A stretch of 64,000 nt of DNA. Source: an uncultured Clostridia bacterium (GTDB lineage: Bacteria > Bacillota > Clostridia > TANB77 > CAG-508). The position numbers and the translations under genes are program-made. Below the pieces are notes generated by a model. That model did not search any database and was not told the origin of the DNA. It worked only from the letters and a program-made list of their open reading frames with translations. The stretch spans positions 215,755 to 279,754 of the forward strand of contig CAKOVU010000001.1 in assembly GCA_934122115.1 (NCBI GenBank), read 5' to 3'. This document shows, piece by piece, positions 1,023 to 47,664 of the stretch (the first letter of the stretch is position 1; each line of letters opens with the position of its first letter).

Positions 1023-1174
1023 TTATTGTTTTTTAGATGGTGGAATAATTATTTTATTGCTATCATTAACCTCTGAATTAGGTTCATCAACATTTAAATG
1101 TTCATATACTTTTGAAATGTCTAAATCCTTGCCATCTCCTGATACGATTTTTATTTTATTAGATTTATCACTCA
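1023..1174 (-). CDS. Small hypothetical protein (about 50 aa, MSDKSNKIKIV...); the ORF-track start at 1205 is probably too long
   Basis: ATG with AGGAGA RBS 7 nt upstream on the minus strand. Lies downstream of the leftward promoter of switch 1. Confidence 0.3.
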
Positions 1175-1344
1175 TAGTAAAATCTCCTATCCAATCTTTT
1201 ATCAACTAAATATATAATAGCAAAAAATAGCTATTTTGTCAAAGACGAAATAAATAGAAAATAAAAATGGATATAATACTTGAAATAAATAAAACATATT
1301 GTTATACTATAATCGATAAAATAGTAAGCAATATGTTTGGTTAT

Positions 1345-1562
1345 TTCCTTAAGTTATATACTTAAAGAAATATTTCGATACGAAAATTATATCAATAAAA
1401 GCTTGATATTTCAAGCAAAATTCAGAAAAAATAATTGCAATTTTTTTGAATTAATTTGAATCAGTTTGAAAAATGAGTAAAAACGCTGCAAGCTAGTATC
1501 TTCAAATATTATAGCAAAAATATTTCAAAAAAATCTTTTCGTTAAGTATATAACTTAAGGAA
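1345..1562. promoter_or_regulatory. Invertible DNA switch 1: inverted 25-bp core sites (ttccttaag-ttatata-cttaaagaa at 1345-1369; ttcgttaag-tatataa-cttaaggaa at 1538-1562) flanking a segment of about 170 bp
   Basis: Outer arms are perfect inverted repeats; the 7-bp spacers are exact reverse complements of each other (asymmetric overlap). Same architecture at 3621-3823 and 12578-12791. Confidence 0.8.
1386..1414 (-). promoter_or_regulatory. Sigma-A promoter inside switch 1 (TTGAAA-17-TGaTATAAT, extended -10), currently directed away from the 1624 gene
   Basis: Near-consensus -35, 17-bp spacer and TGnTATAAT read on the minus strand. Identical at the homologous position in switches 2 and 3. Confidence 0.7.
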
Positions 1563-1623
1563 GTTGGAAAAGATAATAAAAACATAGTAATACCAAAGAA
1601 AATAAGGAAAGGAAATTAATATA

Positions 1624-3318
1624 ATGAAAAACTTGAATATTGAAGTCGAAGAAAATAAAAAAGGAATTACATTAGTTGCATTAGTAGTAACAATAGTAGT
1701 TTTATTAATACTGGCAGGAGTAAGCCTGAACTTATTAATAGGCAATAATGGAATAATAACGAGAGCACAACAAGCCAAGATAAGTAATGACCTAAGTTCA
1801 TATAAAGAGCAACTAGCAATGTTCATAGCAGAAAAGAAAGTAGAAAATCCAGAGTTTTATGAATCAAGCCTAACAGCAGGAAAGAATAATTTATATTATA
1901 ATACCAAAACATCAGAAGACGAAAAAACAATAAAAGACATAATCAATGATGTAAAAGATGAGTATTTAGACAGCCTAGAAGTAATAAAAGGAAAGCTAAT
2001 AATAAATACACAAGATAAAAATATAATAAAGGTGGCTCAAACAGTGGGAGTAGAACCAAATCCATATGATATAAGAAATGGAGTATTACAATCATCAGAT
2101 GGTAATTTATTATTAATGGATGAGAATGGAACATTAAGGATTCCGGATAGTGTAACAGAAATAGGAGAAGGAGCATTTTCTGGAATAGAAGGACTAAAAA
2201 CAATAATAATACCAGGGACAGTAAAAACTATAGCTACTAGTGCTTTTTCATTTAATACAACACTTGAAACAGTAATACTAGAAGAAGGAGTAGAGAATAT
2301 AGGCAATCAAGCATTTAATGGATGTAGCAATATAAAAAATGTGAACTTGCCAGAATCATTAAAAAGAATTGGAAATTTAGCTTTCTATCAATGCAGTAAA
2401 TTAGAAACAGTAACGATACCAGGAAATATACAAGATATAGGGAGTTATGCGTTTTCCGCATGTAGCATCTTAGATAATGTGGTACTGGAAAATGGAAATA
2501 AATTAATAAGCAATGAATGCTTTTCATATTGTTCAAATTTAACTAATATAACAATTCCAAGCACAGTAACAAGTATTAATGCATCTGCTTTTAGATATTG
2601 CACAAAACTAAACAAAATTATATTAAAAGAGAATAAGAGTTATACATTTTCTGATGGAATATTAAAAACGTCAGATGGTAAGCAGGTTGTATTTATGACT
2701 GATGAATTACTAGCAGGAACAAGCACGTTAGATATTCCAGAGGGGGTAACCAATTTTGGTATGGATGTTGCTGCGTATAAAAATATAAAACAAATAAAAA
2801 TACCATCTACATTGGAAAGTATATGTGAGGCAAACTATTTTCCGAATACTGTAAGTGATGTAATAGTAGACTCAAAAAATACCCAATATGTGGCAGAAAA
2901 TGGCATATTATATACGAAAGTAGGTAAAGAAGTAATAATGTGCTATTCAAAAGAAAAGGATATAAATATTCAAGAAGGAATATTAAGATTAAATGTATCC
3001 TCTTTTAATCAAGCTGAAAAAGCAGAAAATATTATTTTACCGGAAAGCTTAAAAGCTATTGAATATACGGCTTTTTCATCGCTAAATAATTGTAAAAAAA
3101 TAGTGATAGGAAAAAAAGTATCAGAAATTAGTCCTGTATTTAAATATGGCAATTATGCAGGGACAATTGAAATAAACAGTGAGAATCCATATTATATAGT
3201 GGAAAATAATATATTGTATTCAAAAGATAAAAAGAGATTAGTATGTGCTTTAAGCAAAATAGAAGGAACATTTACTGTATCAGAAGGCGTAGAAACAATA
3301 CGGATATTATGCTTTTGA
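1624..3318 (+). CDS. Pilin-like N-terminus (class III signal/N-methylation-like segment KGITLVALVVTIVVLLILAGVS) fused to a BspA-type leucine-rich-repeat domain; reading frame breaks near 3300
   Basis: N-terminus conserved with four paralogues. Repeats of the IPxxVTxIGxxAFxxCxxL type. Confidence 0.7.
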   Translation: MKNLNIEVEENKKGITLVALVVTIVVLLILAGVSLNLLIGNNGIITRAQQAKISNDLSSYKEQLAMFIAEKKVENPEFYESSLTAGKNNLYYNTKTSEDEKTIKDIINDVKDEYLDSLEVIKGKLIINTQDKNIIKVAQTVGVEPNPYDIRNGVLQSSDGNLLLMDENGTLRIPDSVTEIGEGAFSGIEGLKTIIIPGTVKTIATSAFSFNTTLETVILEEGVENIGNQAFNGCSNIKNVNLPESLKRIGNLAFYQCSKLETVTIPGNIQDIGSYAFSACSILDNVVLENGNKLISNECFSYCSNLTNITIPSTVTSINASAFRYCTKLNKIILKENKSYTFSDGILKTSDGKQVVFMTDELLAGTSTLDIPEGVTNFGMDVAAYKNIKQIKIPSTLESICEANYFPNTVSDVIVDSKNTQYVAENGILYTKVGKEVIMCYSKEKDINIQEGILRLNVSSFNQAEKAENIILPESLKAIEYTAFSSLNNCKKIVIGKKVSEISPVFKYGNYAGTIEINSENPYYIVENNILYSKDKKRLVCALSKIEGTFTVSEGVETIRILCF

Positions 3319-3328
3319 CGTTCAAAAT

Positions 3329-3565
3329 TTGATGAGTGAAGTTATAATAAATGAAGGAGTGAAAACAATAGAAGATACAGCTTTTTCACAGTGCACAAAT
3401 TTGCAAAGAATAGAAATTCCAAGCACAGTTACAAGTATTGGAAAAAATACATTTGAAAGGTGCATTAATTTATCAAACATAGTTATAAATAATAAAGAAG
3501 ACTCGATAGGTGGTGCACCATGGGGAGCACCAAAAGGAATGAGAGCAATAACCTGGAAAAAATAA
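3329..3565 (+). pseudogene. C-terminal LRR repeat continuing the 1624 gene in another frame (apparent +1 frameshift near 3297-3305; atacggatat versus expected ataggatat)
   Basis: Frame 2 upstream of 3329 reads ...QYGYYAFDVQNLMSEVIINEGVKTIEDTAF, the same LRR unit type. Could be a genuine pseudogene or a sequencing error. Confidence 0.5.
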
Positions 3566-3587
3566 TTGAATAAAAAGTAAAGCATAT

Positions 3588-3620
3588 TGCCGGCGAAACT
3601 GAACAATATGTTTTATTTTT
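3588..3620 (+). terminator. Terminator hairpin (catattg...caatatg) plus T-run
   Basis: Inverted repeat followed by ttttattttttt. Confidence 0.45.
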
Positions 3621-3823
3621 TTCGTTAAGTAATAAACTTAACGAAAGTGTTTATATAAAAATTATAGCAATAAAACAGTGGTATTTCAATAAAAGTAAAA
3701 GAATAAATAAAGTTGCAAAATGATAAAAAATTTAAAAAAATAAAAATATAAACTTCTTGAAATCATTTAGTTCCAATGTATTCAAGGTTTTTAGTTACTT
3801 CCTTAAGTTTATTACTTAACGAA
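3621..3823. promoter_or_regulatory. Invertible DNA switch 2 (core sites ttcgttaag-taataaa-cttaacgaa at 3621-3645 and ttccttaag-tttatta-cttaacgaa at 3799-3823)
   Basis: Sequence-variant arms and spacer but identical 9-7-9 architecture. Spacers are reverse complements; outer arms are perfect inverted repeats. Confidence 0.75.
3661..3689 (-). promoter_or_regulatory. Sigma-A promoter inside switch 2 (TTGAAA-17-TGcTATAAT), facing away from the 3882 gene
   Basis: Seen directly; homologous position to the switch 1 and 3 promoters. Confidence 0.7.
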
Positions 3824-3881
3824 AAATTAGAATTAGAGGGAACATAGAAGTAGCAAGGAAAACAAGCAAAGGAGCAAAAAA

Positions 3882-5714
3882 ATGAAAGAAGCAAGAGATG
3901 AAAAAGGGGTCACTTTATTAGAATTAACAATAACAATTACGGTATTGCTAATATTGGCAAGTGTTACAACACAATTGGGTTTAGGTAAAACGATGGAATT
4001 AAAAAGATATAATGCAGTAAAGAGCGATATAATAGAATTAACAGAGGCGGTTCAAACATATTATATGGAAAAAGGAGAGTTACCACTAGAAGATGCAGTT
4101 ACACAAGTAGAATTTACACCGCCAGAGGATAATAAAAATCCAAATGACAGTGGAGAATATTATGAAATAGATGTAAGTTTGCTAGAGAGTGTAAATATTC
4201 AGAATAAGAGAAATACATATATAGTGGATAAACAGAGTTTAACAGTGTATTGCCAAGAAGGAATAGAATATCAAGGAAAAACATATTACACGATACTGGA
4301 CAATAATGAGACAACAGATTATTATAATCAAGTAGATTTACCAATAATTTCAATAGTTACGTTTGAAAGTGATAATAGCATAAACAAGTATTGGGCAACG
4401 GAAGGAGACACAGTAACACTAAAGCTATTTACAAATTATGAAATAGATCCAACAGTAATTATAAATGGAACAAACGCAAATATAGAATGGAGTGAAGATA
4501 AAAGAATTGGAACAGCAACATATAAGATAGGAGAAATAAAAACACCAGATACAAAAATAGAGTTTAGCATATCGAATTACACAGCAAATGGAAAAGAAGG
4601 AGAAACGATAAACAAGCCAACATTTTCTGATGGAGTAACATTAAAAATGAATACATGGGAAATAATGAAAGTAAGCTTAAATACAGAAGCAATAGGAAAC
4701 GGAACAATAAATGGAGGTACACCAAACACCAATAATCCAATAATACCAAGGGGATACATACCAATAAATACAGGGAATGCCACATGGGGAGATGGAAGTT
4801 CTGCACCAACACAAAGTTCAGTAGATAACGGTCTAGTAATAAAAGATAGTAAAGGAAATGAATGGGTGTGGGTTCCAGTAGAAAAAAGCATATTGTCTAA
4901 AATGTATACAAAATCAAACGGAGAAAATATTACTGGAATTACAGGAGTAACGACTAAATTATATACAAATTCTACAACAATAGGAAGAGCGGGTGATACA
5001 GTAACCCTAACGAGAAGCCTACCAAATACAACCGATTATAGAGAACCGGATTTTATAGTTGGAGATAACAGTACGGATTATGACAAAAATGAAATCTACT
5101 ATAAAACAATATTAGGATTTGATACATCAGAGGCGATGGCAGAAGCATTTATTAGTGATTATGCTGATATGATAACTAGTATAGAAACATATGGTGGGTT
5201 TTATATCGGAAGATATGAATTATCAAATGAAGGGGTGCAAAAAGGAAAAGCAACATTAACCAATAAAAATTGGTATGAATTATACAAAAAATGTACAGAA
5301 TTAAAAGCAAGTGAAAAAGTAGAAAGTAGGATGATATGGGGAATTCAATGGGATTTAACATGTGATTTTATATCTAAAAAGGGTGAAAAAAAGAGCATAA
5401 CAAATTCTACTACTTGGGGAAATTATAATAACAGTACAGGAAATGCAGCTGTAATGGAAGGAACAGCCAAAAAATATGGAAGTAAGCAAGTAACAGGATA
5501 TAGTGAATACTGGAAGGCAAACAATATATATGACTTTGCAGGAAACTGTTGGGAATGGAGTCAAGAGGCTATACGTATTATAAACCGTACCCATAGAGGT
5601 GGTGTTTATGGTCAAGATGGTTTAAGTGAACCAGCATCTATTCGTAGCTATAGTTGGGCAAGTTATAGTAATGGTAGTGATTTGGGTTCTCGACCGATTT
5701 TAATAATAAAATAG
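3882..5714 (+). CDS. Pilin-like N-terminus (G|VTLLELTITITVLLILA with Glu+5) fused to an FGE-sulfatase/SUMF1-type (C-type-lectin fold) C-terminal domain, 610 aa
   Basis: Canonical prepilin-type class III signal. C-terminal motifs NNIYDFAGNCWEW and RGG of the FGE/DUF323 family. Confidence 0.7.
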   Translation: MKEARDEKGVTLLELTITITVLLILASVTTQLGLGKTMELKRYNAVKSDIIELTEAVQTYYMEKGELPLEDAVTQVEFTPPEDNKNPNDSGEYYEIDVSLLESVNIQNKRNTYIVDKQSLTVYCQEGIEYQGKTYYTILDNNETTDYYNQVDLPIISIVTFESDNSINKYWATEGDTVTLKLFTNYEIDPTVIINGTNANIEWSEDKRIGTATYKIGEIKTPDTKIEFSISNYTANGKEGETINKPTFSDGVTLKMNTWEIMKVSLNTEAIGNGTINGGTPNTNNPIIPRGYIPINTGNATWGDGSSAPTQSSVDNGLVIKDSKGNEWVWVPVEKSILSKMYTKSNGENITGITGVTTKLYTNSTTIGRAGDTVTLTRSLPNTTDYREPDFIVGDNSTDYDKNEIYYKTILGFDTSEAMAEAFISDYADMITSIETYGGFYIGRYELSNEGVQKGKATLTNKNWYELYKKCTELKASEKVESRMIWGIQWDLTCDFISKKGEKKSITNSTTWGNYNNSTGNAAVMEGTAKKYGSKQVTGYSEYWKANNIYDFAGNCWEWSQEAIRIINRTHRGGVYGQDGLSEPASIRSYSWASYSNGSDLGSRPILIIK

Positions 5715-5718
5715 AAAT

Positions 5719-5833
5719 ATTACGAAAAAAGTACGTAAACGGAAAAAATTCGTAATGAAATATTGAATAAATTATGAAAATTTGATATAATTATTACGAA
5801 AAAGTTCCATAAACGGAAAAAATTCGTAATGAA
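5719..5833. repeat. Two direct copies of a 41-bp hairpin-containing repeat (attacgaaaaaagtacgtaaacggaaaaaattcgtaatgaa), each with an 8-bp stem attacgaa/ttcgtaat
   Basis: Copies at 5719-5759 and 5794-5833 differ at 3 positions. Confidence 0.6.
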
Positions 5834-5842
5834 GGTTAAGAT

Positions 5843-7087
5843 ATGGAAATAGAAAGAAATTTTTATTTAAATGAATTAATAGATAGGATGGATAATGGAC
5901 TCATTAAAATAGTTACAGGGATAAGAAGATGTGGAAAGTCTTATTTGCTTGATCCAATATTTAAAAATTACCTTTTGGAGCAAGGAATAGAAGCTAATCA
6001 CATTATAAAATTAAGTTTAGATGAAAGAGCAAATAGCAAATATTTAAATCCAGATGAACTTGACCAATATGTAAGAAGCTTAATTGTTGATGACAAAAAA
6101 TATTATTTGTTACTAGATGAAATTCAAGAGGTTAAAGAGTTTGAGTCAGTCTTAATTGGATTTATGCATATAACCAATGTAGAGATCTATGTAACTGGAA
6201 GTAATTCAAAGTTTTTATCATCAGATATTGTTACAGAATTCAGAGGCAGAGGTGATGAAATAAGGGTTTATCCTCTATCTTTTGATGAATTCTTTTCAGT
6301 ATTTGATGGAAGCGAAGAAAAGGCTTTAAATGAATATTATACTTATGGAGGATTGCCATTAACTTTATTAGCTAAAACAGATAATGCAAAAATAAATTAT
6401 CTAAAAACGCAGAAAGAAAACGTTTATATCAATGACATTATTGAAAAAAATAATGTGCAAAACAAAGAAAAATTTGAAATGCTTGTACAAATAATTGCAT
6501 CAGATATAGGGTGTTTAACAAATCCATTAAAATTATCAAATGTGTTTAAAGAAAGAGATACAAGCTCAAGCATGACTGATAAAACAATATACAATTATTT
6601 GGGATACTTACAAGATGCATTTATGATAGAAAAAGCGAGACGTTTTGATGTAAGAGGGAAAAAATTTATAGAAACTCCACAAAAGTATTATTTTACAGAT
6701 ATGGGAATTAGAAATTCGTTTCTAGATTTTAGACAAAGTGAGGAAATATCTCATACGATGGAAAACGTAATATATTTAGAATTGCGAAAACGTGGATATA
6801 ATGTTGATGTTGGTTCTGTTGAAATAAGAGAGGGCGATAGCAAAAAGCAGCTTGAAATTGATTTTGTAGCCAATAAGGGAAATAACAAGATTTATATCCA
6901 ATCTGCATTAGAGATGAAAACGGCTGAAAAAGTTGAACAAGAACAAAAATCATTATTAAATGTAAACGATTTCTTTAAAAAAATAATAATTGTAGGAGAT
7001 AATGTTAAAAAGTCTCGCTATGAAAATGGAATAATAATAATGAGTATATATGATTTTCTATTAGATAAAAATAGTTTGGAATATTAA
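5843..7087 (+). CDS. AAA-family ATP-binding protein (AAA_14 plus DUF4143 type)
   Basis: Walker A GIRRCGKS, Walker B LLLDEIQ; typical 410-aa architecture. Confidence 0.7.
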   Translation: MEIERNFYLNELIDRMDNGLIKIVTGIRRCGKSYLLDPIFKNYLLEQGIEANHIIKLSLDERANSKYLNPDELDQYVRSLIVDDKKYYLLLDEIQEVKEFESVLIGFMHITNVEIYVTGSNSKFLSSDIVTEFRGRGDEIRVYPLSFDEFFSVFDGSEEKALNEYYTYGGLPLTLLAKTDNAKINYLKTQKENVYINDIIEKNNVQNKEKFEMLVQIIASDIGCLTNPLKLSNVFKERDTSSSMTDKTIYNYLGYLQDAFMIEKARRFDVRGKKFIETPQKYYFTDMGIRNSFLDFRQSEEISHTMENVIYLELRKRGYNVDVGSVEIREGDSKKQLEIDFVANKGNNKIYIQSALEMKTAEKVEQEQKSLLNVNDFFKKIIIVGDNVKKSRYENGIIIMSIYDFLLDKNSLEY

Positions 7088-7095
7088 TGAACTAG

Positions 7096-7128
7096 AACCT
7101 TAAGGAATTCCTTAAGGTCCTCTTTTTT
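7096..7128 (+). terminator. Terminator: perfect 20-bp palindrome ccttaaggaattccttaagg plus T-run
   Basis: Seen directly. Confidence 0.6.
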
Positions 7129-7143
7129 GACAATAAAAATCCT

Positions 7144-7172
7144 TGACAAATTAATAGCATATTGATAATATA
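7144..7172 (+). promoter_or_regulatory. Putative sigma-A promoter TTGACA-17-TAATAT
   Basis: Consensus -35 and 17-bp spacer upstream of an AGGAGGA RBS for 7198. Confidence 0.4.
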
Positions 7173-7197
7173 AAATAGCAGATAACTAGGAGGATAT

Positions 7198-7740
7198 GTG
7201 ATGAGCTTTTTTGAAATTTTTTATCCTAAAAAGCATATAAATAATGTATTAGATATAGAGTACAATTTCTTACAGGAGAACGGAATTGAAGCATTATTAT
7301 TGGATATAGATAATACATTAATTGATTATGATAATAATCTACTAGAAGGGTTAGAAAATTGGGTAGAAAATTTGAAAAGGAAGAACATAAAATTTTGCAT
7401 ATTATCAAATACTAATAAAAAGCAGAAAGCGGAGAAGTTATCAAAAAAATTTGGTATTCCATATGTGTTTTTTGCAACGAAACCATTAAAAAGAGGCTTT
7501 TATAAGGCAAAGGAAATTTTAAAAATACAAGATAATACGAAAATTGCAGTTGTGGGTGACCAAATAATGACAGATGTATTGGGTGCAAATAGGTGCAAAA
7601 TGTATTCAATATTAGTTACTCCGATAAAGAATAAAGATATATTTGTTACAAAGATAAATAGAGTTATAGAAAAAAAAATATTAAAAAAATACTATAAAGA
7701 CAAGATGAAAGATAAGAGGGATACGAATGTACATAAATGA
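7198..7740 (+). CDS. HAD-superfamily phosphatase, YqeG family
   Basis: LLDIDNTL motif I and GDQIMTDVLGAN motif. Confidence 0.7.
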   Translation: MMSFFEIFYPKKHINNVLDIEYNFLQENGIEALLLDIDNTLIDYDNNLLEGLENWVENLKRKNIKFCILSNTNKKQKAEKLSKKFGIPYVFFATKPLKRGFYKAKEILKIQDNTKIAVVGDQIMTDVLGANRCKMYSILVTPIKNKDIFVTKINRVIEKKILKKYYKDKMKDKRDTNVHK

Positions 7741-8464
7741 TATAAATATTTTATATTTTTTAGGAATAGGAATTTTAGGATTATTAGTAGGGCAGTTTGT
7801 AGATTGGTGTAATATTAGATTGTTAGAGCACAAAAAAGTTTTTAGTAAAGAATTTTTTTCGGTATATATGAAACAATTTAAGCCTAAATACAGCTACATG
7901 TGTGCAATGGCTATTATATATGTAGGGATAATGTATACAAGTGCATTTTCGCTAAAGGCATTGGCATATTACATATTAGCACCAATGCTAATGAGTGCTT
8001 TGATAATAGATTATAAAGAACAGATAATTCCTAATAGGTTAAATCTAACAATTTTTGAAGTTGGATTAGCATACACGTTTTTGGAAGGAATAGTAAATAT
8101 AAATGTTGCAATAAATATGCTTTTAGGAATGATTGTTGGAGCTGGAATATTTTTGCTTATAACTTTTATAGGAGGTCTTATTGCAGGTAAAGAAGCGATG
8201 GGTTTCGGAGATGTAAAGCTTATGGGAGCTTTAGGATTATTTTTTGGATGGCAAACAATAATTATTATTTCACTTTTTGCATTCTTGATGGGAGCAATAA
8301 TTGGAGTTTTATTGATTGTAAGCAAGAAAAAATCAACACAGGATTATATTCCATTTGGACCATTCATAGTAATAGCAGCTATAATAGCAATGTTTGTACC
8401 ATTTAATATTTTATTATTAGCATCATTAAAAATATTCACATTAGGAACATATACAGGAGCATAA
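7727..8464 (+). CDS. Type IV prepilin peptidase (A24 family)
   Basis: Polytopic membrane protein with the GFGDVKLMGALG motif. Confidence 0.75.
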   Translation: MYINDINILYFLGIGILGLLVGQFVDWCNIRLLEHKKVFSKEFFSVYMKQFKPKYSYMCAMAIIYVGIMYTSAFSLKALAYYILAPMLMSALIIDYKEQIIPNRLNLTIFEVGLAYTFLEGIVNINVAINMLLGMIVGAGIFLLITFIGGLIAGKEAMGFGDVKLMGALGLFFGWQTIIIISLFAFLMGAIIGVLLIVSKKKSTQDYIPFGPFIVIAAIIAMFVPFNILLLASLKIFTLGTYTGA

Positions 8465-8487
8465 AATGAAAAGAGGGTGTAATCTTT

Positions 8488-9561
8488 ATGAATAGTAATT
8501 TACGTTGGCTAAGAGACAAAATAAAAATGCAAAATCTTCAAGGTATAATAATATCAAACCCAATAAATGTAAAATATTTGGTAGGGATAGAAGCTGAGGG
8601 AACTCTGCTGATTACTCCAAAAGAAAATATTTATATAACAGATGGAAGATATATAGAAAGTGTTAATAAAACACTAACTCTAGATGATGAGATAATTGTG
8701 TATGATATGAAAAATCTTACTAAAGACGATTACGAGAATTTTTTCTTATTTTGTGAAAACGTTGGATTTGAAGAGGAGTATGTAACGTATGCTAGATATA
8801 AAGAATTCATGCATAAATATAAGATTAATAGCCTAAATGAAACTGAGGGTATAATAGAAAAGCAGAGAATGATTAAGGATTCTGAGGAAATAGAGCTAAT
8901 AAGAAAAGCATGTGAAATAACAGATAATTGCTTTGAATATTTGAAAAGCTATATCAAAGTAGGAATCACAGAAAAGCAAATAGCAAAGGAAATAGAAAAC
9001 TTTTTTATAAGTAATGGAGCAGAAGGTGTTTCGTTTGAAACAATAGTAGCATCTGGGGCAAATTCTTCAAAACCTCATGCAGTTCCAACAGATAAAGCGA
9101 TAGAATCAGGGGATCCGATTACAATAGACATGGGTTGCATATATAAAGGTTATTGTTCAGATATGACAAGAACAATATTTGCACAATATGTTCCAGAAGA
9201 AATAAAACCTGTTTATGAGCTAGTATTAAAGAATCAGAAACAAGTAATAAATGAGATAAGAGAAGGAGTTAATTTAAAAATAGTTAGCAGAATGGTAGAA
9301 AATGACTTCAAATTGCATGGATATGATTGCATACATGCATTAGGGCACGGTGTTGGTATGGAAATACATGAATTACCATTTATTAGTTCTAAAGTAGATT
9401 TTATGGTTAAACCAAATATGGTGATAACAGATGAACCAGGAATATATGTGCCAGGAAAGTTTGGAGTAAGAATAGAAGACACTTTAGTTGCTTATAAAGC
9501 AATGAGTGAAGCACTAACAAAATCAGAGAAAGATTATGTAATAGTTGACAAAAAGAGCTAA
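8488..9561 (+). CDS. M24 family Xaa-Pro aminopeptidase/dipeptidase
   Basis: HGVGMEIHE metal-binding motif and creatinase-like N-domain. Confidence 0.75.
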   Translation: MNSNLRWLRDKIKMQNLQGIIISNPINVKYLVGIEAEGTLLITPKENIYITDGRYIESVNKTLTLDDEIIVYDMKNLTKDDYENFFLFCENVGFEEEYVTYARYKEFMHKYKINSLNETEGIIEKQRMIKDSEEIELIRKACEITDNCFEYLKSYIKVGITEKQIAKEIENFFISNGAEGVSFETIVASGANSSKPHAVPTDKAIESGDPITIDMGCIYKGYCSDMTRTIFAQYVPEEIKPVYELVLKNQKQVINEIREGVNLKIVSRMVENDFKLHGYDCIHALGHGVGMEIHELPFISSKVDFMVKPNMVITDEPGIYVPGKFGVRIEDTLVAYKAMSEALTKSEKDYVIVDKKS

Positions 9562-9667
9562 AAGACTTGATTTTTGGCTTGAAATGTAGTATTATAGTAT
9601 AGTCGTACATAATTTATGAAAATTATTAATAAAATAAATAATAAAAATTTTGAAAGGGGTAATAATA

Positions 9668-10234
9668 ATGGCAGGAGTATATATGGCAGGAGATTTTAGA
9701 AATGGAACAACATTTGAAATGGACGGAAACGTTTTTAGAGTAGTAGAATTTCAACATGTTAAACCAGGAAAGGGTTCAGCATTTGTTAGAACAAAATTAA
9801 AGAATGTAATAACAGGAGCTGTAATAGAAAAAACATTCAACCCATCAGAAAAATATCCAGAAGCAGAAATAGAGAAGAAGGATATGCAATACCTATATAA
9901 CGATGAGAATTTATATTACTTTATGGATAACGAAACTTACGAGCAAATGCCACTTAATAAAGAGCAAATTGGGGATGCATTAAAGTTCATAAAAGAAAAC
10001 ATGAATGTAAAAATGTTATCATATAAGGGAAAAGTATTTGCAGTTGAACCTCCAATGTTCGTAGAGCTAGAAGTTACATATACAGAACCAGGATTTGCAG
10101 GAAACACAACTACAACATCTGGAAAACCAGCAACATTAGAGAATGGATATGAAATATCAGTTCCAATGTTTGTAAATATCGGTGATGTAATAAAAATAGA
10201 TACTAGAACTGGTGAATACATGGAAAGAGTTTAA
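9668..10234 (+). CDS. efp: Elongation factor P
   Basis: Strong match (GDFRNG...KPGKG). Start moved to the ATG 7 nt after the AAAGGGG RBS; the track start at 9650 is likely too long. Confidence 0.9.
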
Positions 10235-10252
10235 TTTAGAAAGGATTTTTAT

Positions 10253-10768
10253 ATGTCAGGCTTAAATGATAAATATAATCAAATATTATTAGATATAGAA
10301 GAACATATTTCTAATGAAGATGAGAAAAAATATGTTGTAGAGAAAGTAGAAAAACTGTCATCTTTATATATGGATTTGGTAGATAGAATTACTAGAATGG
10401 ATGATGAGAGAATAGAAAAATTAGAAGAGAAACAAGAAAAAATCATTAATGTGTTATCAAAATTGCAAGAGTCAGTAAACTTGATAAAGAGCGATATATA
10501 TGAAGATGACAATTATGATTTTGAAATAGTTTGTCCATACTGTAATCATGAATTTGTAGCAGATATAGAATCTGAATTAAAAGAAGAAATCGAATGCCCA
10601 GAATGCCATAATATAATTGAGCTAGATTGGGACGGAGAAGAAGAAAATTCATGTAGTGCTTGCCATGGTGGTCATTGTTCATCTTGTGGAATAGTACATG
10701 AGCATGAAGAAGATGAAGATAATGACGAAGATATTGATAATATAGATGATAACGAAGATGATATGTAA
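10253..10768 (+). CDS. Hypothetical acidic protein with a four-CxxC zinc ribbon
   Basis: CPYC...CPEC...CSAC...CSSC plus a D/E-rich tail. Confidence 0.4.
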   Translation: MSGLNDKYNQILLDIEEHISNEDEKKYVVEKVEKLSSLYMDLVDRITRMDDERIEKLEEKQEKIINVLSKLQESVNLIKSDIYEDDNYDFEIVCPYCNHEFVADIESELKEEIECPECHNIIELDWDGEEENSCSACHGGHCSSCGIVHEHEEDEDNDEDIDNIDDNEDDM

Positions 10769-10771
10769 ATA

Positions 10772-11332
10772 TTAAAAATTAAAATATTCCAAAGGATTGA
10801 CGGCGATGCCGTCTTTTTTTATTGTAAGATGCAAGTGGCAACCAGTTGTTGCTCCATTAGTAGGATTACCATAAGAATCTTTATAAGGATTATTTATTAT
10901 ACCATAAACATTTTTGGGACCTACATAGGAAATTATATCACCACCATTTACTATATCGTTTCTAGAAACAATAAATTCGGAAGATACATGGCAATATGAT
11001 ACAGCAATATCTAAACTATCATTTTTTACAACAATAGTGTATCCGCCGCCAGCACCCCAACTTGCAAAAGTTACTGTTCCAGAACATACTGCCAAGATAG
11101 GAGTTCCTTCAGGTGCAGGAATATCAATTCCACTATGATATGATGAAGCACCAGAAGTGGGGGAAGACCTATTACCAAAATACGAACTTATATAAGTATA
11201 GTTCGTAAGAGGCCAGATAAATTCACCATTGTATCCTGATGAAGTGGAAGCAACAATAGGAATAAAACAAGAAATTAGCACTGAAAAAAAGATTATAATT
11301 ATCAAAAAGAACTTAAAAAAACTACTAGTCAT
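10772..11332 (-). CDS. Secreted M23 (LytM) family peptidase
   Basis: Signal peptide; HSGIDIPAPEGTPILA...GYT..V.H motifs. Confidence 0.65.
   Translation of the reverse strand: MTSSFFKFFLIIIIFFSVLISCFIPIVASTSSGYNGEFIWPLTNYTYISSYFGNRSSPTSGASSYHSGIDIPAPEGTPILAVCSGTVTFASWGAGGGYTIVVKNDSLDIAVSYCHVSSEFIVSRNDIVNGGDIISYVGPKNVYGIINNPYKDSYGNPTNGATTGCHLHLTIKKDGIAVNPLEYFNF
10789..10818. terminator. Bidirectional terminator (gacggcgatgccgtc plus T-run) between convergent genes
   Basis: Seen directly. Confidence 0.6.
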
Positions 11333-11370
11333 AAAATCTCCTTTATTAACTAGTAGTTTGAATAGTTTGA

Positions 11371-11813
11371 TTATTTGTTTTTCTTAGTGAATACGAACAA
11401 TTTACTAAAAATATAATTTCCAACAATAACAACTGCTTGAGCAAATAGTGTCCAGAAAATTACCCATAATCTGCTGTTTAATTTTAGAACTGTTACAAAT
11501 ACAAACATTATTAGCATTTCTAAAACTAAAGTAAATAATCTTGCTCCAACGAATGAAATAAATTCTTTGAATACTTTTTTAGATTCACTTTTAAATACAA
11601 CTGTACGATTTGTTACATATGCAAATAAACATGCTACAATCCATGAAATTATAATTGCTATTTGCAATTGCGTACCGTTAGAAGCATCTAATACTGTGAA
11701 AAGCAATGCATATTTAACACCTAAATTTACCGCAGTAGCTAAAACACCAAATATTAAATATAATATCACTTCTTTATTACAAAATTTTTTAAATAATTCT
11801 TTTAACTTGTCCA
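11371..11813 (-). CDS. GtrA-family membrane protein (polysaccharide biosynthesis)
   Basis: Four TM segments with the GtrA-like pattern. Start set at MDKLKELFKK; the track ORF runs into the tRNA. Confidence 0.55.
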
Positions 11814-11868
11814 TATAAATACTCCATATAAAAATTAAAACCCGAAATAGTTCTATTCGAGTTTGTAG

Positions 11869-11943
11869 TGGCAGGGGTAGTAGGATTCGAACCCACACAG
11901 GCGGTTTTGGAGACCGATGTGCTACCATTGACACTATACCCCT
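11869..11943 (-). tRNA. tRNA-Trp (anticodon CCA)
   Basis: Cloverleaf with a CTCCAAA anticodon loop and encoded CCA end; closely matches the Bacillus tRNA-Trp. Confidence 0.9.
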
Positions 11944-12007
11944 ATCTAATGACTTTTATATAATAGCATACTTTTTTTGAATATGCAATACAAAAATAAA
12001 AAATATT

Positions 12008-12036
12008 GCACTTATGAAATTAAAGTAGTATAATAG
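12008..12036 (+). promoter_or_regulatory. Sigma-A promoter TTGCAC-17-TATAAT for ssrA
   Basis: Seen directly; the -10 ends 12 nt before the mature tmRNA 5' end. Confidence 0.6.
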
Positions 12037-12048
12037 AAGAGTATATGG

Positions 12049-12404
12049 GGATGTATTTGGTTTTCGACAATATCCCAGAAGCATATAAAGCGAGTAGTGG
12101 ATGGCTGCTTCGGCCACTATAAAAAAGCAGAATAAAAATAAACGCTGATAATACAGAATTAGCTTACGCTGCCTAAGATAGGTGGCCCGTCTTCTCTTTA
12201 GAGGCCTACGGCTTTAGAAAAGGCGTCAAATTAGTAGGAAACAAAACTATTTTTGCTATGGAAATAGTGGGTATTAAATAGCTACTTTAGATTTGCATTT
12301 GTTTGTTAATACAAATTTAGAGGAATAATAATAACAAACTGCACTCGGAGAAATATATGTGGAAAGAATATTGGACAGGGGTTCGACTCCCCTCATCTCC
12401 ACCA
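12049..12404 (+). ncRNA. ssrA: tmRNA (SsrA)
   Basis: 5' GGGGATG...TTCGACA; tag ORF ...ADNTELAYAA*; 3' tRNA-like end GGACAGGGGTTCGACTCCCCTCATCTCCACCA. Confidence 0.9.
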
Positions 12405-12478
12405 ATTTCTTTTGCAGCATTCTATAAATTTTATTCTTTATCCATAATTGAATTTACATAGACGGGTAATTGAATCGA

Positions 12479-12516
12479 AAAAACTCTCTACTTTTGAAAA
12501 GAAGTAGAGAGTTTTT
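12479..12516 (+). terminator. Terminator (actctctactt/aagtagagagt plus T-run) of ssrA
   Basis: Seen directly. Confidence 0.7.
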
Positions 12517-12577
12517 ATATTATAAATAAAAAACATGGTACAAGACCAAAAAGGCTCTGTTTATTTTTCTTTATTTA

Positions 12578-12791
12578 TCCTTAAGTTATATACTTAAAGA
12601 TAAATTCAATACAAAAATTATAACAATAAAGTATTAATATTTCAATAGTTTTAATAAAAATGTTATAAGTTTTTTTGAAACGAAAAAAATAAAATATTTA
12701 AAATTTAACAAACCTTGCAATACTACAGATACAAGATATACACAACTTTTATTGAAGAAAAATTACTTCGTTAAGTATATAACTTAAGGAA
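12578..12791. promoter_or_regulatory. Invertible DNA switch 3 (core sites at 12578-12600 and 12767-12791), inserted just downstream of ssrA
   Basis: Core sites identical to switch 1; spacers are reverse complements. Confidence 0.8.
12617..12645 (-). promoter_or_regulatory. Sigma-A promoter inside switch 3 (TTGAAA-17-TGtTATAAT), facing away from the 12854 gene
   Basis: Seen directly. Confidence 0.7.
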
Positions 12792-12853: not shown

Positions 12854-14143
12854 ATGAAAAATAGAAAAGGTATTACATTAGTTGCTTTGGTAATTACAAT
12901 AGTTGTTATACTAATTTTAGCGGGAGTGAGCTTGAATTTGATTTTTGGAGAAAATGGAATATTAAGAAAGAGTGAGTACACTGCTAATAAGTATAGTAAG
13001 CAGAATGAAAATGAGCAGACAGAATTAAATGATATAAATTTATGGATTGATGAGAGCACTGAGAAGCTAATAAAAGTAAATGTGAATGAAAAGGCAAAAA
13101 TCAATGGAACCATAAATGGCGAAAAAGCAAGCAATAATAATCCTGTAATACCCAAAGGTTATATACCTATAGATGCTGGAAATGCAATTTGGGGAGATGG
13201 TATAAGCAGCCCAGCTCAAAATTCGGTGGATAATGGTCTAGTAATAAAAGATGATGATGGTAATGAATGGGTGTGGGTACCTGTAGATGAAGAAACAATA
13301 AAGAAAATGTATGTTGTTTCTGATAAAGAAAACGGAGAAAAACTAGCAGGTGAAACAGAAATTACAACCAAATTTTATTCTAATACTACAACTATAGGTA
13401 AAGAAGGAGACACAGTTAAGATTGATAGAGTAAAGCCAAATGAGTCAGAATACAGAGAACCAGACTTGGTAACAAAATATGATTTAGAAGAAGAATATTA
13501 TAAAAATATATTGGATTTTAAAAGCCCAAAAGATATGGCAGAAGCATTTACAAAAGAATATGAAAATATGCTCAAAAGCATAGCAAAATATGGTGGATTT
13601 TACATAGGAAGATATGAATTATCGAATGAAGGCGTGCAAAAGAGAAAAACAGTTTTGTTTAATACGAATTGGTATAATTTATATAAGGAATGTGCAACAT
13701 TAAATGCAAGTGAAAAAGTTGAGACAAGAATGATATGGGGGGTTCAGTGGGATTTAACATGTGATTTTATATCTAAGAAAGGAGAAAAGAAAAGTATAAC
13801 AGATTCACGCAGTTGGGGCAATTTTTTAGATAGTATAGATAATGCTGCAGTAATGGACGGAACAACTAAAAAATATGGAGAGGGGCAAACAACTGGATTT
13901 AGTGAATATTGGAAAGCAAATAATATATATGATTTTGCGGGGAATTATGTGGAATGGACTCAAGAAGCGGGAAGTAATAATGAATGTAGAAGCCTAATGG
14001 GAAGAGACTATAAAACAGAAGGTGCTTCATCATGTACTTCAAGAATAAGACATTATCCAAATGAAGACCATCATAATAGAATACGGCACAAGACCAACTT
14101 TGATAATACTGGACTAATTAAAAATTATATGATAGAATTTTGA
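12854..14143 (+). CDS. Pilin-like N-terminus fused to an FGE/SUMF1-type domain, 429 aa
   Basis: N-terminus KGITLVALVITIVVILILAGVSL; C-terminus shares NNIYDFAGN.VEW and the GFYIGRYELSNEGVQK block with 3882. Confidence 0.7.
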   Translation: MKNRKGITLVALVITIVVILILAGVSLNLIFGENGILRKSEYTANKYSKQNENEQTELNDINLWIDESTEKLIKVNVNEKAKINGTINGEKASNNNPVIPKGYIPIDAGNAIWGDGISSPAQNSVDNGLVIKDDDGNEWVWVPVDEETIKKMYVVSDKENGEKLAGETEITTKFYSNTTTIGKEGDTVKIDRVKPNESEYREPDLVTKYDLEEEYYKNILDFKSPKDMAEAFTKEYENMLKSIAKYGGFYIGRYELSNEGVQKRKTVLFNTNWYNLYKECATLNASEKVETRMIWGVQWDLTCDFISKKGEKKSITDSRSWGNFLDSIDNAAVMDGTTKKYGEGQTTGFSEYWKANNIYDFAGNYVEWTQEAGSNNECRSLMGRDYKTEGASSCTSRIRHYPNEDHHNRIRHKTNFDNTGLIKNYMIEF

Positions 14144-38341: not shown

Positions 38342-39250
38342 ATGGCTACTACAAACCCAATGCAAAGAAAGGCAAAAAATTCATTCTTATTAGGAGTTTT
38401 ATTAACTATGCTTGTAATGGGAGTGATTGTTGGACTATTATTTTTAAAAATAATGAATATGCAAAAAGCAGAAAATGAAAGGCTTGCAAACCAAAAGCAA
38501 GTATATGTATTATCACAAGATGTAAAATCTGGAGATAAGGTAGATAGTGCAAATTTAACAACTATAACAGTTGATAATGCAGCAGTACCTTCTAATGCTA
38601 TAACACCAGGAAGCTTAACTGAATACACTGTTGCAAAAATAGATTTGAAAAAAGGAACAACAATTACAGCAGGAATGATCACTGAATCTAGTGAGGAAAC
38701 AACTGCTGATTTAAGAATGCAAGAATATAATATGATAAAATTATCAACACAACTTGCAACAAATGATTACATAGATATTAGATTAAGAATGCCTTCAGGA
38801 TTAGACTACATAGTAGTTTCTAAAAAATCTGTAAAAATTCCTGTAATAGGTGGAGAAGAATCATCAAATACAATATGGGTAAAATTATCAGAAGCAGAAA
38901 CATTAGCAATGAGTAATGCAATAGTTGAAGCATACACAATGAATGGAGCAATACTTTATACAACAACATATACAGAGCCAGGAATGCAAGATGCAGCAAC
39001 ACCAACATATGTACCAAGTGCTAATGTACAAAATTTAATGAATCAAAACCCAAATATATTACAAGAAGCAAAAAATGCTTTATTTACAAGATATAATAGC
39101 ACTTCATCAATAAGAACTAATAATATAAACGGAGAACTTTCACAATATCAAGAAGAAGCACAAGGCAACATTAGTAATGGAGTATCATCAGAAGTAACAT
39201 CAGCACAAGAACAAAGAAAATCTTATTTAGATGCTTTAGCTGGAAACTAA
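38342..39250 (+). CDS. CpaB/RcpC-like Flp/Tad pilus assembly protein (N-terminal TM plus SAF domain)
   Basis: Architecture and size; start of the pilus locus. GGAGG RBS. Confidence 0.55.
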   Translation: MATTNPMQRKAKNSFLLGVLLTMLVMGVIVGLLFLKIMNMQKAENERLANQKQVYVLSQDVKSGDKVDSANLTTITVDNAAVPSNAITPGSLTEYTVAKIDLKKGTTITAGMITESSEETTADLRMQEYNMIKLSTQLATNDYIDIRLRMPSGLDYIVVSKKSVKIPVIGGEESSNTIWVKLSEAETLAMSNAIVEAYTMNGAILYTTTYTEPGMQDAATPTYVPSANVQNLMNQNPNILQEAKNALFTRYNSTSSIRTNNINGELSQYQEEAQGNISNGVSSEVTSAQEQRKSYLDALAGN

Positions 39251-39271
39251 TATAAAGGAAGGATAAATAAA

Positions 39272-39958
39272 ATGGAAAAAATAGGATTTATAGGGGCGTA
39301 TGATAAAGAAAATCTTATAATGTGTGTAGCAAAAATTCTTACAGAATTAGGCAAAAAAGTAATGGTTATAGATTCTACAGTTACACAAAAAATGAAGTAT
39401 ATAATACCTACTATAGATCCTACTACTTCTTATATAACACAACATGAAGAAATAGATTTTGCAATAGGAATTAAATCTTTTACTGAAATCAATAATTACT
39501 TGGGGATAACTAATTTTGAATCAAGTGATTATGATTATCTATTAATGAATATAGATGATTCAACAGAAATAGAAGAATTTAAAATGGATGAAGCAAAGAA
39601 AAACTATTTTGTTACATCATTTGATTTATATTCACTAAAAAGAGGATTAGAAATATTGGATGGAATAAAAAATCCAATAGATTTAAAGAAAGTGTATTAT
39701 GCTAATAATGTTAGAAAAGAAGATGATGAGTATTTAAATTACTTATCCTTAGGTAAAAAAATAAACTGGGAAGACGAAAAAATTTATTTCCCAGTAGATT
39801 TAGAAGATGAAGATGTAATGCTAGAAAATCAAAGGATAGCAAAAATAAGATTAAAAGGATTAAGCAATTTATATAAAGAGGCTTTAGCATATATTGCAGA
39901 GGAAATTGCAGGCAGTGAAGAAAAGCAAAACATAAAAAAAGTAATAAAGCAATTATAA
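39272..39958 (+). CDS. Degenerate MinD/ParA-fold protein (TadZ/CpaE-like, P-loop lost)
   Basis: IGFIGAYDKENLIMCVAKIL in place of a GKGGVGKT-type loop; DYDYLLMNIDD switch-like motif. Confidence 0.45.
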   Translation: MEKIGFIGAYDKENLIMCVAKILTELGKKVMVIDSTVTQKMKYIIPTIDPTTSYITQHEEIDFAIGIKSFTEINNYLGITNFESSDYDYLLMNIDDSTEIEEFKMDEAKKNYFVTSFDLYSLKRGLEILDGIKNPIDLKKVYYANNVRKEDDEYLNYLSLGKKINWEDEKIYFPVDLEDEDVMLENQRIAKIRLKGLSNLYKEALAYIAEEIAGSEEKQNIKKVIKQL

Positions 39959-39970
39959 AAGGAGAACGAT

Positions 39971-40825
39971 ATGGCAGTAATATCTTTTTGGGGAAACAGC
40001 GAAAAAGAAACTGGACAAACAATTGCTACCATGGCTATATCTACCATGATGGCTTTTGAACATAATTATAAAATATTAACAATTTCTACTGGCTTTAAAG
40101 ATAGAACCATGGATGAAAGTTTTTGGCCGGCAAATAGAGCAACAGGATTACAAAGAATATTAGGAACACAAAGCGAAAACTTTGTTAATATGGAATCTGG
40201 TATAGAAGGATTAGGCAGAGTAGTAGAAAGCAATAGGTTAAGAAAAGGGCTAATACCGAACTATGCAAAAGTAGTATTTACCAATAGATTGGACGTGCTA
40301 GTATCACCTAGAACCGAAAATCCAAAAGAATATATAGAAATTGCAAAAACATATCCTAGCATTATTGAAACAGCAGCAAATGATTATAATATGGTTTTTG
40401 TAGATATTGATAAGAGGCTTCCAACAGAAATTCAAAGAGCAATATTAACTAAGTCAGATGTTATAATAATAACTGCTAAACAAGGGCAACAAGGAATAAA
40501 CAAATTAAATGAATTAACCAAAAAGAATGAAATGTTTCAAGGAGACAATATATTAAAATTGATAGGCAAATATGATGCAAGCTCTAAGTATAATGTAAAA
40601 AATATATCAAGAGAATTGCGAGAAAGAAAATTAATCTTATCTGTGCCTTATAATACAATATTCTTTGAAACAACAATGGAAGGAAAAGTACCAGATTACT
40701 TTTTAAAATTTAGAGGCTTAACAGTAGTAGATAAAAACGATTCTAATATGTTTTTCTTATCAGAGCTAAAAAGAGATTGTGAAATAATATTAGAAAAAAT
40801 ACGTGAAGTAGAATTAAAGAGATAA
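39971..40825 (+). CDS. Second degenerate MinD/ParA-fold protein (TadZ/CpaE-like)
   Basis: ISFWGNSEKETGQTIATMAIS in place of the P-loop; DYNMVFVDID. Confidence 0.45.
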   Translation: MAVISFWGNSEKETGQTIATMAISTMMAFEHNYKILTISTGFKDRTMDESFWPANRATGLQRILGTQSENFVNMESGIEGLGRVVESNRLRKGLIPNYAKVVFTNRLDVLVSPRTENPKEYIEIAKTYPSIIETAANDYNMVFVDIDKRLPTEIQRAILTKSDVIIITAKQGQQGINKLNELTKKNEMFQGDNILKLIGKYDASSKYNVKNISRELRERKLILSVPYNTIFFETTMEGKVPDYFLKFRGLTVVDKNDSNMFFLSELKRDCEIILEKIREVELKR

Positions 40826-40844
40826 CAAAGGAAAGGAGCTAGAC

Positions 40845-42758: not shown

Positions 42759-42772
42759 AAGGAGGTGCAATT

Positions 42773-44851: not shown

Positions 44852-44881
44852 TACTGATAAAAATTCTGGAGGAAAATATAT

Positions 44882-45508
44882 ATGGAAAACGCAACAAAAG
44901 CACTGGAAATAGCTGGCGGAGTATTAATTTCATTAATAATAATAGGAACAATAGTATTTTTTTACAACAGAATATCAGAAGTAAAGCAAACAGAACATAA
45001 TACTCAAGCGGAAGAGCAAGCAGCAGATTTTAATAAAGATTATGAAGTATATAACAGAAATGACGTTTATGGAAGTGAATTATTATCTTTAGCAAACCAG
45101 ATGCAAGATTATAACACTAGAGAAGTTGAAAAAGGTTATGAAAAGATAGAATTAAGTGCCACTTTTAAGCAAAAATCTAATATATTTATACAATATTATG
45201 GCAATAAGCAAACATATTCTCAAAGTGATTTAGCATCTGGTTATACAAAGCTTGCAAATGAAATAAATAAACTTTCAACTAAAAAGATAACAGACGCTTC
45301 TGGTCAAACAACAAAAACATATAATGAATGGGTAAAAATATCTAAAACTACCTTGAAATCAACTTTAAAAACTGCAGATTATAATAGTATAATAAATTAC
45401 CAAGACTTAATAACTGAGCAAACTAATATTGCTAGAGGAACTTTTAGATGCACAGATGTAAAATATAAAAATTCAAGAATAGTAAAAATGACTTTTTCTG
45501 AAAATTAG
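44882..45508 (+). CDS. Pilin-like protein, MENATKALEIAGG N-terminus, 208 aa
   Basis: Shared N-terminal motif plus hydrophobic segment, as in 45526, 46539 and 46984. Confidence 0.5.
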   Translation: MENATKALEIAGGVLISLIIIGTIVFFYNRISEVKQTEHNTQAEEQAADFNKDYEVYNRNDVYGSELLSLANQMQDYNTREVEKGYEKIELSATFKQKSNIFIQYYGNKQTYSQSDLASGYTKLANEINKLSTKKITDASGQTTKTYNEWVKISKTTLKSTLKTADYNSIINYQDLITEQTNIARGTFRCTDVKYKNSRIVKMTFSEN

Positions 45509-45525
45509 AATAGGAGGTAGCTAAA

Positions 45526-45987: not shown

Positions 45988-46050
45988 CAAACAGATTTTT
46001 ATAAAAAAGATTGCATAAAAAAATATAAAATGCTATAATAAAGAGGAATT

Positions 46051-46488: not shown

Positions 46489-46538
46489 GTTATTAATATT
46501 TTTAAAATATAAAATAAAATCTAAGGAGGAACATTTTT

Positions 46539-46949: not shown

Positions 46950-46983
46950 TTAAGTTAATAATAAAGTGAAATAGGAAAGAATT

Positions 46984-47622: not shown

Positions 47623-47664
47623 CAGAAGAAGGACAAGATTAAAAGTTTAGAAAGGAAATAGATT

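Follow-up and report, generated by a model that had tools for sequence, protein, structure and literature searches.

A stretch of 64,000 nucleotides from an uncultured Clostridia bacterium (GenBank assembly GCA_934122115.1, contig CAKOVU010000001.1, positions 215,755 to 279,754; hereafter referred to as the window) contains three short segments, W1, W2 and W3, which are very probably invertible promoter switches (invertons) of the fimS type. Each is located upstream of a gene for a predicted pilin-like protein. An earlier reading of the sequence (hereafter the original prediction) proposed that the paired sites bordering these segments are inversion substrates, and that together they form a multi-locus phase-variation system for a family of surface proteins. 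Comparative inversion data supported both proposals: a conspecific contig (L147) carries W3 in precisely inverted form, and the orientation of a homologous switch is polymorphic among 18 metagenome contigs. The window is a chromosomal segment (29% G+C) of a Clostridia organism with sporulation genes, and its proteins are found again in metagenome assemblies from the human gut and in metagenome-assembled genomes (MAGs) labelled Clostridia or Christensenellales bacterium.

Recombination sites and predicted internal promoters

The site pairs were found at the three loci where the original prediction had placed them. Each 25-bp site is composed of two 9-nt arms (consensus TTCCTTAAG / CTTAAGGAA) surrounding an asymmetric 7-nt spacer. 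The two sites of a pair are inverted, lie 153-168 bp apart, and precede the genes at 1624, 3882 and 12854:

1345-1369, W1 distal (left) site, TTCCTTAAG-TTATATA-CTTAAAGAA
1538-1562, W1 gene-proximal (right) site, TTCGTTAAG-TATATAA-CTTAAGGAA
3621-3645, W2 distal site, TTCGTTAAG-TAATAAA-CTTAACGAA
3799-3823, W2 gene-proximal site, TTCCTTAAG-TTTATTA-CTTAACGAA
12577-12601, W3 distal site, ATCCTTAAG-TTATATA-CTTAAAGAT
12767-12791, W3 gene-proximal site, TTCGTTAAG-TATATAA-CTTAAGGAA

Re-examination upheld the 9-7-9 architecture, with the spacers of partner sites being exact reverse complements: TTATATA/TATATAA in W1 and W3, and TAATAAA/TTTATTA in W2. The outer arms, previously described as perfect inverted repeats throughout, are perfect in W1 and W2, but those of W3 match at 8/9 positions. 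The description of the switches as near-identical was not confirmed, since their interiors are only ~65-75% alike and what is conserved are the sites and the promoter. With inverted arms, an asymmetric spacer within the range of 6-8 bp and matching of the spacer to that of the partner, the sites have the features expected of a tyrosine-recombinase core, as far as can be judged from their sequence. Chance palindromes were rejected as an explanation of the sites, because no matches to the motif were expected in shuffled sequence (100 shuffles), compared with 5 observed for the exact motif (at most 3 mismatches) or 11 for a degenerate motif. Both repeats of each switch are intergenic, the gene start being located 58-62 nt past the proximal repeat; a shufflon or another gene-altering inversion was rejected, as the repeats lie outside the coding sequence.

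Scanning for the site motif revealed 19 loci in species-representative genomes, mostly MAGs of uncultured gut Clostridia and many with paired sites ~180 bp apart, as well as 111 further loci in metagenomes. Eleven spacer types were distinguished. Among 51 distinct adjacent site pairs, the spacers were perfectly reverse-complementary in 48; of the three that deviate, one is an artefact of overlapping sites. At L029 (308-518) and L058 (6776-6987) the partner spacers are not reverse complements, and these pairs may be naturally locked if spacer identity is required. Neighbouring switches on one contig have different spacers in 7/7 adjacent pairs (P ~0.04 given the spacer frequencies), which would stop recombination between them. 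Across loci flanked on one side by a pilin-like gene, 34 switches were OFF and 16 ON. The switch in L069 lies between two divergent pilin-like genes and thus would select one of the two.

The original prediction also placed a sigma-A-type promoter on the minus strand within each switch, facing away from the gene, and this held for all three:

1386-1414, minus strand, W1 invertible promoter, TTGAAA-17-TGATATAAT, pointing away from the gene (OFF)
3661-3689, minus strand, W2 invertible promoter, TTGAAA-17-TGCTATAAT (OFF)
12617-12645, minus strand, W3 invertible promoter, TTGAAA-17-TGTTATAAT (OFF in the window, ON in L147)

These predicted promoters (TTGAAA-17-TGnTATAAT) match the consensus at 11/12 positions, carry the TG extension and are the top-scoring promoter-like sites of their regions, with 15-16 nt between the end of the -10 box and the left site. 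The -35 box, the 17-nt spacing, the TG and the -10 box are all kept in 41 distinct switches, with the promoter ending 14-16 nt from one repeat, while the remainder of the interior is variable. The distance originally proposed between the promoter and the start codon after inversion (60-90 bp) had to be corrected: the computed positions are ~100 nt before the ATG for the -10 box and ~95 nt for the transcription start. All three loci are in the OFF orientation in this assembly, as had been stated, and the same applies to nearly all conspecific assemblies examined.

Transcripts directed away from the genes would run into the following elements:

1292-1338, minus strand, hairpin with U-tract, terminator-like, in the path of W1 OFF-direction transcripts
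3583-3611, minus strand, hairpin with U-tract, in the path of W2 OFF-direction transcripts
12480-12516, no strand assigned, strong G+C hairpin with U runs, in the path of W3 OFF-direction transcripts

For the OFF-direction RNAs of the three window switches, which contain a hairpin and U-tract, the folding z-scores range from -4 to -7. At 12480-12516 the hairpin probably represents the terminator of the tmRNA gene (12047-12404, plus strand), which together with a tRNA gene (11872-11943, minus strand) lies directly to the left of W3; its predicted structure would also stop OFF-direction transcripts of W3. Apart from this tmRNA and tRNA, Rfam yielded no matches, and no known regulatory RNA was recognised in the leaders. 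Just past the OFF-side hairpin of W1 there is a 50-aa open reading frame (ORF; 1023-1242, minus strand), called as a gene in all conspecific contigs, with a promoter-like sequence of its own (1242-1214, TTGACA-17-TATTAT with TG, 11/12 consensus).

In the proposed mechanism, a site-specific recombinase would pair the two 25-bp sites of one switch, and strand exchange within the matching 7-bp spacers would flip the 153-168 bp segment. A single, strong promoter of the sigma-A type is predicted in the segment, its -10 box lying 14-16 nt from one repeat. With the switch ON, transcription would proceed out through the proximal repeat and a ~60-nt leader to reach the gene, which is predicted to encode a pilin-like surface protein with a class III signal. 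The OFF orientation, which all three loci have in the window, would send transcription the opposite way, to end at the hairpin and U-tract, the presumed terminator. A spacer match would be needed between partners only, and the difference between TTATATA (W1, W3) and TTTATTA (W2) would keep neighbours from recombining.

Natural inversion and strain variation

The ON copy of W3 was located through near-identical protein variants in L147 (ENA ERZ28616820 scaffold_117), a conspecific contig from another sample, whose gene 3 is 99% identical to that of the window. The 214-nt switch is present there with 99.07% identity, but in reverse orientation. When the W3 region of the window was inverted in silico, with the crossover placed in the spacers, the product agreed with L147 at 326/330 positions, from the left site into the gene. 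Moreover, both inner-arm variants have swapped sides in L147, as strand exchange inside the site predicts. Exact-protein look-ups for genes 2 and 3 yielded nothing but OFF or rearranged copies, as similar places had been collapsed, and no match was obtained in metagenomes when the ON junction predicted for W1/W3 was scanned as an exact pattern. W3 is OFF in six further conspecific contigs (L143-L146, L148, L149), and the OFF state was also observed in conspecific contigs L063 and L105.

A second case was provided by a locus resembling that of Clostridium sp. CAG:245. Twelve of the 18 metagenome contigs carrying it, as well as the genome copy (L009), are ON, and the other 6 are OFF. The 153-nt interior is 100% identical but reverse-complemented between contigs, while the flanks are 97-100% identical, and in the ON state the promoter is directed toward the adjacent gene, which encodes a 382-aa pilin-like protein. 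A one-base difference between the inner arms (GGAT vs GGAA) switches sides together with the orientation, which again is a prediction of strand exchange inside the site. In addition, nine orthologous loci have the switch in the orientation opposite to that of L068.

We also identified locked variants. In L096, a single site abuts a fixed TTGACA-17-TGCTATTAT promoter, which faces a 99.5% identical gene 3, and in L023 and L062 the promoter half of W2 has been replaced by DNA with a fixed plus-strand promoter. A different gene (936 aa) and a sortase gene are present upstream in L023. Strains vary in the presence of whole cassettes as well, as seen by comparison with window positions 1283-5714: W1 alone is deleted in L152, cassette 1 is missing in L022 and L030, and cassette 2 is missing in L105. 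Since the cassette breakpoints fall within a conserved upstream element, homologous exchange is possible.

Several observations weigh against the interpretation of W1-W3 as invertible promoters. (i) The left flank of L147 differs from that of the window, matching instead the flank found upstream of a different switch in the family, which indicates that flank or cassette exchange accompanied the inversion of W3. (ii) No ON copy of W1 or W2 was detected in the conspecific contigs examined, which contained only OFF copies, deletions and replacements. (iii) No recombinase was identified in the host organism, for which the window was scanned. (iv) This A+T-rich DNA shows no overall excess of promoter-like hexamers (18 found vs 19.3 expected), so the promoter prediction depends on quality, position and conservation. 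(v) Sites are weakly enriched near contig ends (8 observed vs 4.8 expected). (vi) A promoter-like element outside the switch could give read-through independent of orientation.

The recombinase and alternative explanations

The original prediction that the window contains no recombinase gene stood: none was found among the window ORFs of at least 150 aa scanned against Pfam (four such ORFs were left out), and a scan of all six frames for tyrosine- and serine-recombinase motifs yielded nothing. At 136 related loci, the only recombinase gene beside a promoter-only switch was an XerD-like gene 3.4 kb from the switch in L127, which was judged to be a housekeeping gene.

Recombinase genes were, in turn, found within larger segments bounded by the same type of site. 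In L018 (a rabbit-gut MAG), two divergent pilin genes whose N-termini are identical are separated by a segment of ~1 kb (3994-5073), which holds a tyrosine recombinase gene together with an outward promoter and is bounded by TTCCTTAAG-TTTATTA-... and ...-TAATAAA-CTTAAGGAA. A frameshift in a tract of eight A (4512-4530) interrupts the recombinase gene, and seven A would restore a protein of 314 aa; either an assembly error or slipped-strand control of the invertase could account for this. More than 6000 relatives of this recombinase (PF14659+PF00589, ~322 aa) are present in the database, and many members of the family assemble as stand-alone contigs of 1.1-1.2 kb. PF14659+PF00589 recombinases are also located between divergent pilin genes in L141 and L142 (the flanking repeats in L141 being ATYCTTAAG-TAACTTA-CTTWA) and between divergent hsdS genes in L137-L140 (repeats ATCCTTAAG-TTTAATA). 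As TCCTTAAG followed by a 7-nt A+T spacer bounds recombinase segments in different gene contexts, this half-site can be linked to the PF14659+PF00589 family. The enzyme acting on W1-W3 is therefore most probably a tyrosine recombinase of this family, predicted to be encoded outside the window and to act in trans.

A wider model can be put forward only tentatively. It assumes that one trans-acting tyrosine recombinase, of the family found in the hsdS and pilin toggles, runs promoter switches throughout the genome, and that the spacers serve as a "heterospecific lox" code, in which partners match and neighbours differ, so that switches would flip independently and intervening genes would not be deleted. 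Switches with the same spacer would occasionally recombine, shuffling promoter-gene cassettes; the flank exchange in L147 and the gains and losses of cassettes between strains suggest such recombination.

Of the competing explanations, the first concerns the position of the driving promoter and requires the description of one more element:

1280-1308, plus strand, promoter-like element outside the W1 distal repeat, TTGAAA-17-TGTTATACT, reading into the switch

In ~18 of 26 distinct cassettes, including W1, an element of this kind (TTGMAA-17-TGTTATAAT) is directed toward the switch from a position ~36 nt beyond the distal repeat, on its outer side. It overlaps one arm of the OFF-side hairpin, as well as an inverted repeat (AAAACAYATTG ... 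CAATRTGTTTT) that displays compensatory changes between cassettes; in the window, this conserved region corresponds to 1280-1340. The element could be a second promoter, causing interference when the switch is OFF and read-through when it is ON, or its sequence could be conserved as a part of an insulating hairpin. Should it be the driving promoter, the switches would be of the cwpV/flgB type, in which the segment acts after initiation, via a terminator or head-on interference. The good conservation of the element, and the fact that it would oppose the internal promoter head-on in the OFF state, fit such an arrangement. We nevertheless consider it improbable: the element is absent at W3 and at the CAG:245-type locus, both of which invert, the predicted internal promoter is stronger and universally conserved, a scan of the segments gave no conserved intrinsic terminator inside them, and the locked variants have their promoter at the gene-proximal repeat.

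The second explanation retains the invertible promoter and replaces the tyrosine recombinase with a serine invertase of the Hin/Gin/Mpi type. Mpi of Bacteroides is a global serine invertase acting in trans on many promoters, and no recombinase was found in this genome (window scanned). This possibility appears slighter still, as odd-length 9-7-9 sites, which have no central dinucleotide and whose 7-nt spacers need to match the partner only, argue for a tyrosine enzyme and against a serine enzyme. Furthermore, the same half-site bounds PF00589 recombinase segments in three independent contexts, and no resolvase-family gene was found in the window or beside any switch. A Hin/Gin-type system, for which even-length sites of ~26 bp with a 2-bp crossover core and an adjacent resolvase-family invertase are expected, was rejected on the grounds of the 25-bp sites, the 7-nt spacer and this lack of a resolvase-family gene. 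The sole serine recombinase observed is that of L150, where a large integrase has inserted into gene 1.

It is highly unlikely that the segments belong to the miniature transposable elements, bearing terminal inverted repeats and an outward-facing promoter, and that their orientations reflect independent insertions: many copies per genome do carry 25-bp terminal inverted repeats, and whole cassettes are present or absent between strains, but identical flanks enclose opposite orientations, the junctions being exact to the base and the inner arms swapped, the units always lie 17-62 nt ahead of one gene family, the spacers of the two ends co-vary, and there is no associated transposase.

Putatively regulated genes and relation to known switches

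The genes downstream of the invertible promoters, and a gene located between the cassettes that is related to pilin processing by its annotation, are as follows:

1624-3318, plus strand, gene 1, pilin-like N-terminus and BspA-type LRR domain
3882-5714, plus strand, gene 2, 610 aa, prepilin-type N-terminus G|VTLLE
7727-8464, plus strand, prepilin (type IV leader) peptidase, Peptidase_A24
12854-14143, plus strand, gene 3, 429 aa, pilin-like N-terminus and weakly FGE/SUMF-like C-terminal domain

The original prediction referred to the products as pilin-anchored surface proteins. This is a sequence-based prediction. All three products start with a short basic leader, a Gly residue and then a stretch of hydrophobic helix, which reads KG|ITLVALV... 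for genes 1 and 3 and KG|VTLLE... for gene 2, but Glu+5 of the class III signal is present in gene 2 only, with Ala in genes 1 and 3, and the PF07963 (N_methyl) scores (20.0 and 18.7 bits) are just under the cut-off of 21.2. Comparison of a family profile with PDB sequences gave weak matches to PilA N-termini (E = 0.003) and to SUMF2 (E = 0.015). Genes 2 and 3 and a paralog at 55684 encode a common C-terminal domain with the motifs GGFYIGRYE, NNIYDLAGN.EWT and RGG.Y, which suggests an FGE/C-type-lectin-like fold; the AlphaFold model of the 429-aa gene 3 protein is poor (pLDDT 56.7). The family has more than 7000 relatives in the database, all annotated as hypothetical.

Gene 1 is frameshifted near 3296-3318, giving 564 aa and a 77-aa remainder (3332-3564); its orthologs in L069 and L043 are intact (644 aa). 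The frameshift is probably real and not a sequencing error, since the same break occurs in other conspecific contigs (L021, L024, L151). In L150, the pilin-like 5' end of the gene-1 ortholog has been replaced, and a gene for a large serine recombinase (Resolvase + Recombinase + Zn_ribbon_recom, 537 aa; positions 1-900) abuts it, which suggests that a mobile element has integrated into the N-terminal coding region.

A pilus-type operon at ~38342-48189, comprising CpaB-like and T2SSE-type ATPase genes (38342-42758) and several ORFs with no Pfam matches, is possibly the assembly machinery for the pilin-like proteins. Two more paralogs in the window, at 25876 and 55684, lack a switch. The former is preceded by the remains of one:

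25179-25246, no strand assigned, decayed fourth switch with a solo left-type site (25179-25203, 3 mismatches) and no partner site

Here a degenerate minus-strand promoter (25246-25218, TTGAAG-17-TATAAT) is recognisable, the right half has been replaced by ~650 bp of other DNA, and the remnant is 77-84% homologous to intact switches in L019, L080, L106 and L118. The downstream paralog (25876-27075) has a promoter-like site of its own, TTGAAA-17-TAGAAT, near 25592-25620. A paralog of gene 2 with 90% identity (P0253; L153-L158) also has no switch. It is located 50 nt behind an M50 peptidase gene and ahead of rpsF-ssb-rpsR. Because it lacks a switch and occurs in the same samples as the species of the window, it is probably a constitutively expressed member of the family.

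No earlier description of this site, of the gene family or of phase variation in this lineage was found in open-access full text, but switches of this kind are well known. A close parallel is fimS of Escherichia coli, flipped by the tyrosine recombinases FimB/FimE, in which a short segment with inverted repeats likewise directs a sigma-70-type promoter through one repeat into a pilus/adhesin gene; for the window switches a tyrosine enzyme is the predicted counterpart. The two differ in several respects: (i) the fimS sites consist of 9-bp repeats with flanking half-sites, whereas those of the window are full 9-7-9 cores, (ii) the fimS segment has 314 bp, as opposed to 153-168 bp, (iii) the window has several independent switches per genome and no adjacent recombinase, and (iv) fimS controls a chaperone-usher operon, while the window switches face single genes for large pilin-like proteins. 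The RecV regulon of Clostridioides difficile (cwpV, flgB, cmrRST, pdcB) is a further Firmicute example, for which one trans-acting tyrosine recombinase has been proposed to serve several short surface and motility switches. Several of these switches act post-initiation (through a terminator or Rho) with the promoter outside, in contrast to the conserved promoter inside the window switches, and no sequence relationship was recognised between the RecV repeats and those of the window.

The capsular-polysaccharide and other gut invertons of Bacteroides are likewise a set of invertible promoters of a gut commensal that each govern a surface structure; they are mostly OFF in the population consensus, with the orientation varying by sample. 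Gut invertons have reportedly been compiled in the PhaseFinder catalogue, by Jiang et al. in 2019. Mpi is a serine invertase and has another repeat consensus, whereas the evidence for the window favours a tyrosine recombinase, and neighbouring switches differ in their spacers. The hsdS toggles (L137-L140) and pilin toggles (L018, L141, L142) share with the window switches the TCCTTAAG-N7 half-site and the outward promoter next to one repeat, and their recombinases belong to the same family, with ~60-65% identity. These toggles are ~1 kb in length, carry the recombinase gene and choose between two divergent genes, while the window switches are promoter-only segments of 200 bp that turn a single gene ON or OFF. 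The window switches are thus a well-supported addition to a kind of phase variation that is already known, and their more original features are the varied spacers and the half-site held in common with the hsdS and pilin toggles.

With these switches, an uncultured gut Clostridia lineage of low G+C content and reduced genome gains a defined phase-variation system for a very large pilin-like family. Such surface variation has consequences for adhesion, recognition by the immune system (IgA) and susceptibility to phages. Since the site is recognisable (TTCCTTAAG-N7-CTTAAGGAA with a fixed promoter position), the switches are readily scored in metagenomes, and their ON and OFF states could be tracked across hosts with no need for culture. 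The varied spacers, together with the half-site common to the toggles, provide a testable model in which one recombinase would serve many independent switches.

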